From Opitutales bacterium (GTDB lineage Bacteria; Verrucomicrobiota; Verrucomicrobiia; Opitutales; PNEW01): a DNA stretch of 64,000 bases. Under the pieces are notes generated by a model that was not told the DNA's origin, ran no database searches, and saw only the letters and a program-made list of their open reading frames with translations. The DNA lies in NCBI GenBank assembly GCA_965197745.1, contig CBDANS010000006.1, forward strand, positions 960,001-1,024,000. Direction: 5' to 3'. The position numbers and the translations under genes are program-made. This document shows, in pieces, positions 14,182-19,200 of this stretch; within the stretch, counting starts at the first letter, position 1; every line of letters begins with the position of its first letter.

Positions 14182-14727
14182 GGAACAAAGCGTAATCAAA
14201 TCATAGTATTTAAAGTTGAGTCAACAGGGATTAAAGAGAAACGGTGGCCGCGTCCCTCTACATCGGAATGACTTCTTTCAATTTGTTACTAATATGTAAT
14301 TTAAAACCATGAATTAACACGAATTGTCACGAATAAACTCAATCACATATTAAAAAGAATAGGCCTATCATTGTTTGATAATATTTATTTTATATTAACA
14401 ATAGTCACGTTTCTGCTTATGCAAAATATATCTTCAATCGTGTCTATTCATAGGTTTTTTTCACTTTAACATATAATTAACGACTTTGAATTAATGTGAG
14501 ATTGCCATAAGCATCTTTTTTTTATAAAAGTAATGAACTTATAGTGTGAAAATTAAAAATTTTAAATCGGAGGTTTGTCATTAAATTGAATAAGTCTGTT
14601 CAAATAAATACAGTATGACTTATTATATAAAAAAATGACGTATATGTAATCTTCTCACCGGGTATGTCGAATTACATTTTGTGTTGACATTCTGTGAGTG
14701 ATCGGACCCCGTATTTCGTATCAAATT

Positions 14728-15721
14728 TTAAGTGAGAGAACTACCGGGTGTTAATGGTTTTAGGATTGATGTATATGAGAGATCTTGGCGCAGTGAGGGC
14801 GTAGCCCGAACGCGGCCAAGAGCGGAAAGGAATGTGACAAACTCTTGTGGGCTTTTAAAGCCTAATCGACTGTGGGGATGTTCATTGTTATAGGTCTGAC
14901 GCCATTGTTCTATTAGCACTTGCGCTTCAGCCACGCTGAGCAACACTTCACGGTTCAAACACTCATCGCGTAAGCGGTTGTGAAACGACTCGATGAAACC
15001 GTTTTGCCAGGGACTGCCCGGATCGATATATATCGCCTTGATCTTTTTGTCGGACAACCACTGCTGCACCTGATGAGCAATGAATGGCTTCGCATGTCGT
15101 CGCTTCGCTCCTCGGAACACTGCCGTTGTCACTGCGGATATAGCTAGGAACTCCCTCTTCATCGATGGTTTCGCTGAGTACCGAGAGAACATCGGTTGAG
15201 GTGAGCTGTCGAGCTACCCGGATGCGTAAACATTTACGCGTATATGTCTTCGCTTCGCTTGAGTGTCGTCGCTTTCAGCTCCTCGGTACATCGATCAAGG
15301 TCATCATCTTTAGCATACCGCCATTGTCTGTACGATCATGGACAAAGTCCCAGGACCAGACGTGATTGCGACCGGTTGCTTTAGTAGGGAGCCCAGTAGA
15401 GATCCCCTGACGGTGTCTACGCTTTTTCGGGGGCTTTACCTGTAAGCCCGAAGAACGTCGCACTGCCTGTACAAATTTCCTGCTTGCCGCCCAACCTTCT
15501 TTCACCAGCAAGGCACGAATGCGCCGGTAACCGTAACGGGGATGTTCCCAGGACAAGGTCAAAATCCGCTCGGCCAATTGCTGAGCCTTCTTACTGGCCT
15601 GCTTGGGTCGGTAGCTGTACGTTGACCAACTGAGGCTGAGATAAGCACAAGCCCTCTAAAACGAGCACAGCCCCTTCTCAGCCGCATCTTTTACTGCTCG
15701 CTTCTTCTGCTTTGGGCTCAC
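14728..15721 (-). pseudogene. IS3 transposase OrfB (DDE integrase core), disrupted
   Basis: YGYRRI, WSWDF, SDNGS, PWQNGFIESFHNRLRDECLN motifs present; broken by a TAG near 15656 and two short insertions at 15086-15117 and 15246-15288. Confidence 0.9.
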
Positions 15722-15984
15722 CATTTTTTTGAGAGCGTTTCCTCCAACACCCGAAGCTTGAGCATTTGATCAGCGAGCATCTTCTTCAGCTCCGTATTCT
15801 CCTTTTCCAGCTCTTTAAATCGCTTCGCATCAGCCAGCTCCAAGTTGCCATACTTTTTGCCCCAGCGATAGAAGGTCTGTTCACTTAGGTTGTTGCCGTG
15901 GCAGACTTCCTGCACGGTTTTGCCCGTATCGGGCTGCCGCAGTATTGCTATGATCTGTTCTGTTGTATATCTTTTTCTTTTCAT
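15718..15984 (-). CDS. IS3 transposase OrfA (HTH)
   Basis: MKRKRYTTEQII...SEQTFYRW...ELEKENTELKKMLAD; ends at an A7-TGGTGA slippery site typical of the OrfA/OrfB -1 frameshift. Confidence 0.9.
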   Translation of the reverse strand: MKRKRYTTEQIIAILRQPDTGKTVQEVCHGNNLSEQTFYRWGKKYGNLELADAKRFKELEKENTELKKMLADQMLKLRVLEETLSKKW

Positions 15985-16292
15985 TGAGGTTATCTGTTTA
16001 TCCCGATAACCTCTCTCTGTTAATGATACCATTTTTGGGGGTCACTCCATGAGTTATCTTAAAAATTTTGCTCTTAAACAAACGCAATTCCTGGTTCCGG
16101 ATACCTCTTATAATATAATCCTATTGCCATACTCGTTTTTTTAATCTCGGCAGGATAATCATCCCGACAGGTTAATGAGGGCAAAAACAACCCGGATGGT
16201 CCTTCTATATAAATCTGACAATCGCTTATGTCTTCACGAGAAGAACGCCTTCTTTTGAATTGAAAATCACAAGCTAACTCACACTTCAAACG

Positions 16293-19200
16293 ATGAATAC
16301 CCCACTAACGTCGCTCGTAAGTTTATCTTCTAAAATGATGAAACCATTTAAAAATTTAATTTTCCTTTTCACCCTCTTCGGTCTGACCGTCAGTCAGCTC
16401 AACGCCGCAGAGGATTTGATAGTCCAAGCCGACGGCATAGCAGGACCAACTGCTGCTGATCCGGGGGAAACAGTTACTTTTGATATTACGGTAGAAAATA
16501 TTAGTGGTGATACTGATGTCACGGCGGACTTCGATGTTCAAGTAACAATTGACGGGACTACCGCTTCAGGGACTACCACTTTTCCTGCAGCAACTACTAA
16601 TATACCCCAAGGTGGAACGGCCGTGGTACAAGTAAGTGTTGATTTACCCAATGTAGCCAAGAACACTTTTGATGTTACCGCTTTCGCTGACAGTGCTGAC
16701 GATATAGCTGAAGACGACGAAAACAACAATACTGAGACTGAAGTTGCTTTTATATCTATTTCCGAACCTCCACAGATTGAAATCACCCCACCCGCTGACA
16801 ACGCGACGGTCATACCGGGAACGACCATCACTATTACCACTTCCGTTCTCGATACCGACGGGGTCATTGCGCAGGTCGAATTCTTTGTCAATAACGCCAC
16901 CATAGGAACGGTGACGACCTTCCCCTTCCAACTCGATTTCACGGTACCCTCTCCCGGCACTTTAGAAATATCCACCACGGCCACCGATGACTCAGGTGTG
17001 ACGGCCGATTCTGATCTCGTTACCCTGAATTCTTCCGTCGGCTCCGCGCCCACGGTAAGTATTATCTCACCGACCTCAGGCGAAAGTTTCATCCCCGGAT
17101 TCAATCTTGATATTATCGCAGAAGCTGCCGACAGTGATGGCCTCATCGAAGAGGTTGAGTTTTTTATTAACGGGGTATCCATTGGCAACGCAACTACTTT
17201 CCCCTTCGGACTTTTCTTCCAGCTTCCTTCCCCCGGCAGTTATCAACTTACGGCAATCGCAACGGATAATGCGGGCAATGTAGGTTTCTCACAAACCGTA
17301 AACATCGAAGTCGTCCTTGGAACTCCCCCCGTAATTACCCTTACCTCACCCTCATCGGGTGGAAGTTTTATCCCCGGAGCGGAACTCATTCTTGCGGCCA
17401 CCGCAAATGATCCCGATGGTTTGGTTTCTGAGGTTGAATTTTTTGTAAACGATTCGTCAGTGGGAACGACGACGACGGCACCCTTCCAAAGTAATTTCAG
17501 TTTACCTTCATCGGGAGTCTATTTTATTAGAGCGACTGCAACCGACAATTCCGGTAATAAAACAAGATCTGGCAGTGTCGTGGTATCTGCAGGACCCCCC
17601 GACAACAGTACCCCACGAATAATCATTGATCACCCCCTGCCTATCGGAGGTGGTGATACGGTTAATGACGTCTCGGTCGCCTCGAGCATGTTCCTTAATG
17701 CTACAGCGGTGGACCCCGACGGGTTTATTACGGAAGTGCGCTTTTTTGCCAATGGTCAGCTGCTGGGATCGACAAACCAGGGTTTGGGTGATCAGTACTC
17801 ACTCTTCTTTGATCCCACACAACAGGGCGATTTTGAATTTACGGCAGAAGCGGTGGATAATTTTGGGAATGTAGGTCAGGCTATTCCCATTCCTCTCGAC
17901 GTAGGCCCCGTGGAATCTCTACTTCCCACAGGTTTTATGCGTCCTCTCTCGGATCTCGAGTCTACAATCAGTGTCGGGGAAAGTGTTGAGTTGAAGGTCG
18001 AACTCAATGCCGGTCTTCTCGATATCAGCCAGGTGAATTATTATGCAAATGGGGTATTTATTGGAACCCAGGATACCGATACCCCGGTTGAAAGTATCGG
18101 GCAGGTAATGTCTTCCTTTTCAGTTTTACCTGGTTCCCGGATTTTTCCGGAACCTACGCCATGCAGGCGCGTTCCGTCCAGATCGATCCAAACGGATTCA
18201 CTTTCGATAACTGGCTTATTACTGATCCCATTTCTTTAGTTGTCACTGAAGCTTCGTCGGACCGCGATTTCGTCAACCAATCGTTCGTAGATTTTCAAGG
18301 CATAGAGCTGACGCCATCCCAGGAAAGCTCCTTTATTGCTTCGCTGGATGCTGGTCAAATCACCCGTAGCCAGGTCATTGAGGAAATATTTGAGACTCCT
18401 GATGCCGAGAATATTCAAAAAGCGCTTATGGCACGATTCCTTCTTACCGGACTATGGCCAACGCGCGCGCTCCTCTTTCAAGATACCCAGGTAATCACCG
18501 ACAGTGGACTTGGTCAACTGGTTGATTTCCTCATTCCTACCTTTCAGAAATCATTTTTAGATAACCAGGAACTTCCTGATTCATTAGCTACAGATGCGGA
18601 GATTGTCAGCTTCTTTGAAAAGGCGTTTATCAACAAGTACGGTGTTGCTCCCAATGCGGACCAGTCAGAACAGGGTTTGCTGCGAATCAGATTTTCAGGA
18701 GCCGAGTTTTTCCTCGAACGATTCGTTACCGATAATGATATCACCTTTTTAGGATCTACCAGTCGAACAACGGTACTGGCAATCCCGAATCCGCCAAATA
18801 ATCGTTTACCGGATTTCGCCGACTCATCTTCTCTTCTTGTTCATCTTTTAAGAATTCAACCTTCGCCGTCGGATGTGAGTAATCTTGCAGCCTTATCTAC
18901 TTTTATTGATGAAATAGATACTACACTGGCCGACCCCCGTTATATTGATCGGTTTTCTGTGCCTTCAGCTGCCGCTGCCGCCGGTGAAGCTTCGATTGTC
19001 GCCGAAGACATTGTCCGCCCCAATGGGAATGTCTATGACCAGGTATTGTTAAGCACTCAGTCGGTAACCGTAGAGGCCGACCCGGGTCAGATCACCCGCG
19101 TCTCTTTCCTTGATGAGAATGATGACATCGTCATGGCAGAATTCTCCGGATCAGGTGCGCTTGAAGTTTCTATAGATCCCGTTACTTTCCAAAGCGCAGC

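Follow-up and report, generated by a model that had tools for sequence, protein, structure and literature searches.

Short repeat inserts in the catalytic core of an IS3-family transposase gene from an Opitutales bacterium

The window analyzed here is a stretch of 64,000 nucleotides from an Opitutales bacterium (Verrucomicrobiota; GenBank assembly GCA_965197745.1, contig CBDANS010000006.1, positions 960,001 to 1,024,000 of the forward strand), and it carries an IS3-family insertion sequence (IS) whose transposase gene, orfB, is broken by two related inserts of 43 and 32 nt, designated S1 and S2. Both inserts interrupt glutamate codons of conserved motifs, have exact empty counterparts in other copies of the IS, and belong to a family of very small dispersed repeats that enter unrelated contexts according to one junction rule. 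Copies of the IS that already carried the inserts have transposed, and chimeric copies reveal recombination between IS lineages at the inserts. The interrupted copies are probably defective elements mobilized in trans, among which the inserts would have spread by short-patch gene conversion, with host-level selection limiting the number of intact copies. The source genome, hereafter G000, measures 4.45 Mb in 7 contigs, the window being C6:960001-1024000; its assembly is 92% complete, and IS copies may hide at contig ends.

Two inserts in conserved codons of orfB

The host element is one of 35 full-length copies in G000 and presents the features of the IS3 family, namely orfA and orfB, an A7 run, the DDE core motifs, TG...CA ends and a 4-bp duplication; its orfB motifs WSWDF, SDNG and IESF line up with those of intact relatives. 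The features of this copy are as follows, in window coordinates.

14699..16049, minus strand: IS3-family element, family 1 subfamily A, 1351 bp, with TG...CA ends (TGGAGTGACCCCC... / ...GGGGTCCGATCA)
16050..16053, minus strand: left target-site duplication CTCA, found at both ends of the window copy
15718..15984, minus strand: orfA, 88 codons, helix-turn-helix part, intact; open frame with a ratio of nonsynonymous to synonymous divergence (dN/dS) of 0.08 against subfamily B
15724-15730, minus strand: A7 slippery run, after which orfA ends
15290..15655, minus strand: orfB segment B1, 122 codons, ...WSWDFVHD...MMTLID, in the frame of the -1 fusion
15246..15288, minus strand: insert S1, 43 nt, TACCGAG-GAGCTGAAAGCGA-CGACAC-tail, in place of the A of GAA, with an in-frame TGA
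15119..15244, minus strand: orfB segment B2, 42 codons, YTRKC...SDNGS, with the second catalytic Asp, in the same frame as B1
15086..15117, minus strand: insert S2, 32 nt, TTCCGAG-GAGCGAAGCGA-CGACAT-GCGAAGCC, the AG of GAG becoming insert plus A, with a +1 frameshift
14728..15084, minus strand: orfB segment B3, 118 codons plus stop, FIAHQ...PWQNGFIESF..., with the catalytic Glu, in a shifted frame
14695..14698, minus strand: right target-site duplication CTCA

On the minus strand, S1 stands in the context ...TTG ATC GAT G[TACCGAGGAGCTGAAAGCGACGACACTCAAGCGAAGCGAAGAC]A TAT ACG CGT AAA TGT..., and S2 in the context ...GAC AAC GGC AGT G[TTCCGAGGAGCGAAGCGACGACATGCGAAGCC]A TTC ATT GCT CAT.... The gap between LID and YTRKC is 45 nt long (G, the 43-nt S1 and A), a length that keeps the frame with the TGA inside, and the gap between SDNGS and FIAH is 34 nt long (G, the 32-nt S2 and A). 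Relative to the empty alleles, the net gain is 42 nt for S1 and 31 nt for S2, the base following the A of the Glu codon being lost. The first-pass annotation of this DNA had read the two segments as interruptions of the Glu codons in LID-E-YTRKC and SDNGS-E-FIAH, which the empty alleles bear out; its coordinates, the lengths of 43 and 32 nt, the in-frame TGA and the frameshift, as well as the TWCCGAG with which both inserts begin behind a G and the AT afterwards, proved exact when the minus strand was read again.

Both inserts were spanned by contigs in all four public runs, and identical inserts were also present in two other genomes, so that they are not an assembly artefact and the objection that reads might fail to cross them falls away. 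The S1 sequence in one of the relatives, G060, is identical to that of the window. A single empty-S2 joint was observed in run X2, from 15084 to 15118 with an intervening CT (depth 280, side 28), and runs X1 and X2 yielded low-depth joints from 15118 to 15232/15243, as seen in contigs only, from which rare forms may escape.

The alignment of the 35 full-length family-1 copies of G000 allowed fill states to be scored at S1, S2 and two further sites of orfB, S3 and S4.

Site S1: filled in 29/35, empty in 6/35; empty sequence GAT-GAA-TA (GATGAATA)
Site S2: filled in 33/35, empty in 2/35; empty sequence AGT-GAG-TTC
Site S3: filled in 10/35, empty in 25/35; TGG-CAA-AAC in PGSPW-Q-NG; net gain 42 nt, open in frame
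Site S4: filled in 8/35, empty in 27/35; GAT-GAG-TGT in LRD-E-CLN; net gain 35 nt

All four inserts interrupt Glu or Gln codons of conserved orfB motifs (LIDE, SDNGSEF, PWQNG and RDECL) and occupy one codon phase, the codon [G/C]-A-[A/G] being converted into [G/C], the insert (T...C) and A. As the base after the A is lost, simple excision cannot recover Glu or Gln. Comparison with intact IS relatives, which the first-pass annotation had proposed as a check, supported an insertional origin: 10/10 distant open orfB frames lack the segments and read without interruption through DE[YFHL]TR, SDNG[SP]EF, PGSPW[QE]N and R.EC, and diverged copies within G000 provide exact empty sites. The empty state is therefore ancestral. 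Moreover, filled and empty family-1 copies of G060, two of which are without S1, differ by the insert and 1-3 bases over 1.35 kb, and nine family-2 copies differ from intact ones by a 31-nt net insert, 3-5 mismatches and the neighboring TTT/TTC codon. As these filled/empty pairs show, a site changes state in patches that measure some tens of nucleotides. The 129 matches to CCGAGGAGC comprised 72 at site 2, 32 at site 1, 3 beside tRNAs and 22 without the core, and the exact S1 and S2 sequences were confined to IS copies, each to its own site, so that both are now carried along by the IS and passed from one IS copy to another.

Given that S1 brings a TGA and S2 a +1 frameshift, the window copy cannot produce transposase by ordinary decoding. 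Several ways around the inserts were considered and rejected. Self-splicing introns or inteins do not fit segments of 32-43 nt, which are too short, found no counterpart in Rfam and are retained in contigs of the RNA runs; at the gathering score, Rfam returned only rRNA and tRNA for the whole window, and at E up to 10 the region 14600-16100 yielded a chance snoRNA match only (E 5.1). A GT...AG intron would suit S1 and S2 only if Glu were replaced by Thr or Pro, and it fails for S3 (CT...TA) and S4 (GT...GC). Clean excision was likewise discarded, because the insert begins with T and ends with C, so that no contiguous deletion regains GAA or GAG; a search of the IS copies for footprints of insert-only deletions gave 0 true cases, all matches being unrelated sequence. 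Re-initiation at the Shine-Dalgarno-like GAGGAG within the inserts meets a sole downstream ATG, in S2, that is out of frame, and hungry-codon frameshifting at AGG is at odds with a codon used 4.3 times per 1000 whose cognate tRNA is present. No joint skipping S1 or S2 was found in the contigs of the two RNA runs, X17 and X19, where DNA carry-over is possible. Both inserts were retained in metatranscriptome contigs (X17 records 14 and 15), a point that carries little weight, since these are contigs only and DNA may be present.

A dispersed repeat family and its junction rule

The four orfB inserts are built alike, from T(A/T)CCGAG, a mini-hairpin, CGACA(Y) and a tail whose last base is C; the commoner generic form is TACCGAG-hairpin-CGACATC-TTCC. 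In the window, CCGAG-N4-30-CGACA had 10 matches against 2.53 expected, and the maximum among 100 shuffles was 6. In G000 as a whole, TACCGAG-N5-25-CGACATC occurred 86 times against 0 for the reversed control, a looser pattern defined 116 modules, and S2 with at most 3 mismatches gave 73 matches, again against 0 for the reversed control. The base preceding the module was C in 70/116 and G in 29/116 cases, and the base following the tail was A in 94/116. Further members in the window are as follows.

34516..34538, minus strand: generic member TACCGAG-GGAGAAGCCC-GACATC, by heptamer repeats (C6:994516)
34638..34667, plus strand: generic member TACCGAG-TCCCGCAAATGAGGGAC-GACATC, in a palindromic miniature inverted-repeat transposable element (MITE) (C6:994638)
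34836..34854, minus strand: generic member TACCGAG-CGCAGT-GACATC, in a MITE (C6:994836)
31131..31145, minus strand: core of a further member (CCGAGCGCAGCGACA), in a MITE

Paralogous empty sites were found for 18/97 distinct contexts, and the comparison of filled and empty sites in unrelated contexts revealed one rule: [C/G]|A-N becomes [C/G], the insert and A, with no duplication and in a single orientation. The 5' flanks (GATG, AGTG, TGGC, GATG, TTAC, CCTG, CCAC and ATCG) have only their last base, C or G, in common, and one base was lost at 5/5 IS sites. The fifth of these lies antisense in a second IS family, at CTTAC|AG|TTTTTTTT, adjoining the A8 slippery run of family-2/3 IS copies, where flank patterns counted 34 empty and 7 filled sites; the G000 modules there are at C1:9388, C4:58904, C5:22315, C6:553716, C6:1392760, C7:1061679 and C7:1466990. 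Other empty sites were CCCTG|AA|CCCTGAA in the heptamer repeat, GCCAC|AA|AAGGCAC, and the T-loops of pseudo-tRNAs behind tRNA-Asn (C6:355396) and tRNA-Gln (C5:236390), where GGTTCG|AA|TCC becomes GGTTCG, the insert, A and TCC. The palindromic MITE TGTCATTGCGAGG-hairpin-GACGAAGC|AA|TCCAGG was empty at this site in 56 cases (42 AA and 14 GA) and filled in about 29; it fits the position and not the exact rule, because its 3' junction has one extra T.

These results support the earlier suggestion of an ultra-short insertional element, in the form of a genome-wide family with matching empty sites, and its target preference without a clean duplication can be specified as C or G before and A after, with no duplication. 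The recurrence of the motif with empty sites, on which that suggestion depended, was observed in the palindromic MITE, the heptamer repeats, the GCCAC/AAAGGCAC repeat, the pseudo-tRNA T-loops and the antisense site in another IS family.

The central hairpins of the modules are highly variable and their flanks constant. A perfect stem of at least 3 bp was present in 47/116 modules against 25/116 shuffled ones, and of at least 4 bp in 12/116. The DNA mini-hairpin GCGAAGC is unusually stable. At the fifth site, the hairpin arm GTAAGC has its complement in the 5' flank GCTTAC; pairing between hairpin and 5' target flank was dismissed as a general rule, being confined to this CTTAC site (GCTTAC/GTAAGC) and absent in the other contexts. 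The modules themselves are not MITEs, as the head TACCGAG shows no complementarity to the tail ...CGACATCTTCC and the junction loses one base and shows no duplication.

The surroundings of some modules deserve a description of their own. The palindromic MITE family occupies about 85 sites in G000 (e.g., at 34600-34900 and 31100-31200 of the window) and reads TGTCATTGCGAGG-variable hairpin-GACGAAGCAATCCAGG...; its first hairpin module, CGAG-hairpin-GACG, follows the same plan as the IS inserts, and this resemblance in sequence suggests nested generations of one kind of element. Behind tRNA-Asn (C6:355396-355700) and tRNA-Gln (C5:236390-236610), a conserved spacer of about 65 nt is followed by 1-2 copies of the tRNA's own T-arm and acceptor 3' end, and the T-loops of these 3'-half copies hold two insertions, ATGAGAA plus 6-7 nt and an S-type module; such copies may be attachment-site remnants or a tRNA-derived repeat. 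A complete rRNA operon lies on the minus strand of the window at 34984-40473 (16S at 38895-40473, two tRNAs, 23S at 35268-38203 and 5S at 34984-35098), and three family members together with MITEs stand directly downstream of its 5S gene. At C6:162538 and 14 other G000 loci, TTCCGAGCTATCGGATATC occurs in an identical 80-nt context, module-like in appearance and part of a different multicopy repeat.

Could such inserts have arisen without any mobile element, as filler DNA at repaired breaks, by template switching combined with sequence bias, or as an assembly artefact? The unclean junctions, with one base lost, do resemble repaired breaks, and the very variable central hairpins would be in keeping with a local origin. 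However, neither the 7-nt head nor the 7-nt core CGACATC varies among the 86 copies of G000 or the 21-143 copies of each of five other genomes, whereas the reversed control gave 0-2; orientation and junction rule are alike across unrelated contexts; and the same inserts recur in three assemblies and four read sets. This explanation is accordingly considered highly improbable.

G000 and two relatives have about 90-140 copies of the family, which also abounds in three other lineages of the order. S2 with at most 3 mismatches was detected in 3/201 genomes of the order (G000 with 73, G032 with 12 and G060 with 14 matches), all three from the window's own family. The generic module was abundant in 6/61 Opitutales genomes (G000 86, G032 130, G060 143, G038 139, G012 37 and G057 21), the remaining genomes of this sample having at most 3 modules each, and reversed-control counts were 0-2 against 21-143 in the five other module-rich genomes. 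No module-rich genome was found among 200 further genomes of the phylum, all of which had at most 4 matches.

Copy numbers, chimeras and the spread of interrupted copies

A tblastn catalogue of G000 comprised 117 orfB loci. The state counts below refer to loci covering most of the query, with the sites in the order S1, S2, S3, S4 and coded F for filled and E for empty.

State EFEE: 33 copies, family 2
State FFEE: 24 copies, family 1, the window copy among them
State FFFF: 5 copies
State EEFF: 3 copies
State EEEE: 4 copies, family 2 only

Filled copies outnumber intact ones by 24:0 and 33:4 in G000 and by about 42:2 in G060. The latter genome holds 9 intact family-2 and 2 intact family-1 copies, and its roughly 42 family-1 copies with S1 alone have a single TGA in a frame otherwise open for 360 codons. 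In G000, the 16 subfamily-A copies are mutually 98.4-100% identical. A perfect 4-bp duplication flanked 6/26 copies with both ends found, the window copy included, and since these copies bear inserts, copies already carrying them have transposed. The other 20/26 family-1 copies with both ends had no matching 4-bp duplication, and some flanks were shared, for example GACTTTGCAT twice and GGTCTTT twice; the missing duplications and shared flanks suggest many IS-mediated rearrangements or segmental duplications. Next to the window copy itself, a 648-codon open reading frame (ORF) on the plus strand (16293-18239) encodes tandem Ig-like repeats (VEFFVN...G) and may run on past a frame break.

Subfamilies A and B, both in state FFEE, were compared by synonymous divergence (dS) and dN/dS.

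orfA: dS 0.62, dN/dS 0.08
Segment B1: dS 0.54, dN/dS 0.13
Segment B2: dS 0.90, dN/dS 0.11
Segment B3: dS 0.14, dN/dS 0.19

No stop was found in the orfA and orfB segments of this pair, S1 plus S2 (79 nt) had 0 differences, and the nearest differences in the flanks lay 10-17 nt from the inserts. Nearly identical inserts were also found in IS lineages merely 66-75% identical. This identity across diverged lineages excludes neutral vertical descent, and the inserts are either much younger than the IS lineages and have moved between them, or very strongly constrained. Several observations show directly that IS copies have recombined at the inserts: in the copy at C7:1673285, family-1 sequence gives way to family-2 sequence exactly at S2, the loci L003, L004 and L011 of a relative genome switch in the opposite direction, and dS between A and B falls from 0.54-0.90 upstream of S2 to 0.14 downstream.

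A candidate for the enzyme that made the original insertions comes from the single-tyrosine (Y1) HUH transposases. G000 has a lone Y1 gene (C6:163149-163742), whose best match was NF047646, 'REP-associated tyrosine transposase' (RAYT; REP, repetitive extragenic palindromic sequence). In the 61-genome sample, a Y1 match at E<1e-40 was present in 6/6 module-rich and 6/55 module-poor genomes; three of the six module-rich genomes are kin, and the co-occurrence therefore represents only four independent lineages. It identifies a candidate enzyme and is a lead, not a finding. The RAYT gene flanked by the motif, for which the first-pass annotation had advised looking, did not materialize, the lone RAYT-like gene being frameshifted and the repeat not flanking it. 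One copy of the TTCCGAGCTATCGGATATC repeat lies about 0.6 kb from the Y1 gene. The RAYT-like gene is single-copy in most genomes; in G038, which is module-rich and belongs to another family, it has 63 matches (e.g., C1:1352603-1353058), many of them in open frames of 300-410 codons, in the manner of a multicopy transposon.

On the account we consider probable, S1 and S2 would be old, site-fixed members of a REP-like insertional family of about 19-45 nt with tails of 4-24 nt, and the original insertions would have been made by a trans-acting enzyme, the only candidate to emerge being a RAYT-like Y1 (HUH) transposase. The interrupted, non-autonomous copies would be mobilized in trans by the few intact copies, and the inserts would pass between IS copies, diverged lineages included, by short-patch gene conversion or recombination anchored in conserved motifs. 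Such motif-anchored transfer would account for both the position of the inserts in conserved motifs and their lasting identity, because, by the logic of homing introns and inteins, only inserts in conserved motifs would pass between diverged copies. Potential intact helpers belong to family 2 in G000 and to both families in G060. Two intact family-2 copies of G000, at C7:1901264-1902553 (L130) and C4:136857-138146, have orfA and orfB fused into 403 codons, with no frameshift needed, and a 1-nt indel sets two other intact family-2 copies apart. An IS3 transposase encoded in a fused frame would be expected to act as a hyperactive helper.

A number of observations weigh against this account. None of the 35 family-1 copies in the G000 assembly is intact (0/35), so trans-mobilization would need either a family-1 master that is lost or unassembled or cross-mobilization by family 2, which has only about 48% identity to family 1 in OrfB and different inverted repeats. 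The inserts are the only lesions of the expanded copies in three lineages (24 FFEE, 33 EFEE and about 42 S1-only). The flank differences at 10-17 nt limit conversion tracts to less than about 70 nt between sequences about 89% identical, and nearly identical inserts at 66-75% IS identity are hard to reconcile with RecA-type recombination. Moreover, S1 is not in the 33 family-2 copies and S3/S4 are not in the 24 FFEE copies, which implies that conversion is not generally efficient. As for the enzyme, the Y1 gene scored 66.6 bits, under the cut-off of 80, and is frameshifted relative to an intact 327-aa ortholog in G032, and a module was found within 1.5 kb of the Y1 gene at 0/6 loci from 5 genomes. 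Finally, S1 and S2 fold no better than shuffled sequences (z +1.0 to +1.8 as DNA and -0.1 to +1.6 as RNA).

The scarcity of intact copies might instead mean that the inserts are tolerated or used, the copies being autonomous through read-through, a ribosomal hop or an RNA-level step, and the inserts acting as attenuators that permit a high copy number. The expanded lineages do carry the inserts (24:0, 33:4 and about 42:2) without another lesion, the G060 lineage requires just one TGA read-through, and orfA and the three orfB segments are under strong purifying selection in two filled lineages (dN/dS 0.08-0.19). All four orfB inserts share one codon phase; in S1, the AGC before the TGA is repeated 21 nt later in the same frame; in S2, a GCG is repeated 10 nt later in the +1 frame that is needed; either route yields the one peptide VPRSEAK(T/P), and the correct frame is open through S2. 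Nevertheless, three distinct events would be required (a stop in S1, +1 in S2 and -1 in S4), S4 has no matching codon pair, and matched triplets arise easily by chance in a repeat-rich stretch of 30-45 nt. Neither a tRNA-Sec nor a suppressor was present among 44 tRNAs, AGG stands at 4.3 per 1000 with tRNA-Arg(CCU) present, and the TGA is never swapped for a sense codon in near-identical copies. RNA-run contigs keep both inserts, a weak argument in view of possible DNA carry-over into what are only contigs; the predicted structure is limited to 2-3 bp hairpins, and full identity of the inserts goes beyond the usual need of a recoding signal. On balance, tolerance or use of the inserts is judged unlikely. 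In its strongest form, in which the inserts are built-in coding gaps and not lesions, and a free-living bacterium depends on ribosomes reading through or hopping over mobile inserts of 43 and 32 nt for any IS3-family transposase to be made, the idea has quite a poor chance of being right; if true, such gaps would represent, on a bacterial chromosome, the equivalent of T4 gene 60 and of the mitochondrial 'byps', and attenuation would let IS lineages reach 24-42 copies with intact ones staying at 0-4.

A homing-like drive would account for the same islands of identity in another way, a site-specific cut or strand transfer at the conserved motif copying the inserts into empty IS copies, in the way of homing introns and inteins; IS copies would transpose while still intact and be converted individually afterwards, with the micro-element as a parasite of the IS. 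The identity island is exactly the insert, even at 66-90% IS identity; the inserts lie in the most conserved transposase motifs, each type limited to its own site; near-identical filled/empty pairs exist in two genomes; the adjacent Phe codon is co-converted from TTT to TTC; and no intact family-1 copy remains in G000. However, an element of 32-43 nt encodes no nuclease and none was identified, and within the same cell S1 is not in family-2 copies nor S3/S4 in FFEE copies. The 16 subfamily-A copies with both inserts are more simply seen as descendants of one filled founder, and the search for excision footprints gave 0 true matches in IS copies. Only a small likelihood is therefore attached to homing-like drive.

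Relation to known micro-repeats and significance

The kind of element described here is already known, as REP-like or small dispersed repeat (SDR)-like micro-repeats that at times lie inside genes. REPs are palindromic repeats tagged with GTAG or CGTC. According to Di Nocera et al. (2013, PMC3733652), GTAG REPs are highly enriched in Opitutus terrae, where intragenic REPs also reach their greatest number; REP stems are mostly 6-9 bp, the reported intragenic REPs are in frame and in housekeeping genes, and RAYTs are linked to IS200/IS605. In the interrupted-ORF list of supplement 3 of that paper, 'transposase', 'integrase' and 'insertion' had 0 matches. The modules resemble the REP/REPIN-RAYT system in being 20-40 nt repeats of high copy number, with what may be a small stem-loop and a constant tag, in the same order of bacteria, and in the co-occurrence of a RAYT-like Y1 gene with them. 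The C before TAC in 70/116 modules equals GTAG on the other strand, although among the orfB inserts only S3 has it, and S1, S2 and S4 carry GACG (= CGTC) after the first hairpin. They differ from REPs in their stems, mostly 2-3 bp, and in longer constant flanks (7+7 nt) that are not mutually complementary; the Y1 gene, unlike RAYTs, is not flanked by the repeat (0/6 loci), two orfB inserts out of four disrupt the reading frame, and the gene they all enter is mobile in its own right.

IS200/IS605 elements transpose as single strands and insert seamlessly 3' of a fixed 4-5 nt target. The modules share with them a specific orientation, the lack of target duplication, hairpin-bearing ends and a Y1 HUH enzyme as candidate, and differ in that the 5' flank is merely C or G and one target base is lost. 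In Nostoc, mobile SDR of 21-27 nt are reportedly nested in MITEs and tandem heptamers, their enzyme not being known. The modules are likewise very small dispersed repeats and also sit in MITE and heptamer repeats, whereas they belong to a different phylum, have a different sequence, and show a defined junction rule and repeated insertion into transposase genes; the SDR are the subject of Elhai et al. (2008, Genome Res 18:1484), as cited in PMC3116915.

Similarity to selfish palindromic repeats within open reading frames is also evident. Rickettsia palindromic elements (RPE) are about 100-150 bp long. They insert inside protein-coding genes (Ogata et al., as cited in PMC3733652), and they are in frame and translated, whereas here S1 has a stop, S2 and S4 shift the frame, and only S3 is open. 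A last comparison concerns translational bypassing. Here, too, short coding inserts (27-55 nt) break the frame of a host gene under selection, and S1 has a matched pair, AGC-TGA...AGC; by contrast, the S2 pair GCG...GCG lies at +1 without a stop, S4 has no pair, and there is no strong hairpin. In Magnusiomyces mitochondria, the translational bypass elements are the 'byps'. The T4 gene 60 bypass element and its mobile relatives are treated in bioRxiv 10.1101/2022.08.31.505936. The present analysis, made at the level of sequence, found no evidence of bypassing. In the literature searched, no report was found of this module family, of its junction rule, of its repeated insertion into the catalytic core of IS3-family transposases, or of interrupted IS copies exceeding intact ones in number.

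Bacteria commonly harbor very short dispersed repeats, whose way of moving is largely unknown; the filled and empty sites, the reproducible junction rule and one candidate enzyme family make a mechanism testable in vitro. The arrangement is one of parasite on parasite, in which a micro-repeat in the catalytic core of a transposase, identical across lineages at dS 0.5-0.9, marks the expanded lineages. It represents either a route for silencing IS families into non-autonomous elements or an unrecognized case of recoding. Consequently, for genome annotation, such 'pseudogene' transposases should not be presumed inert.

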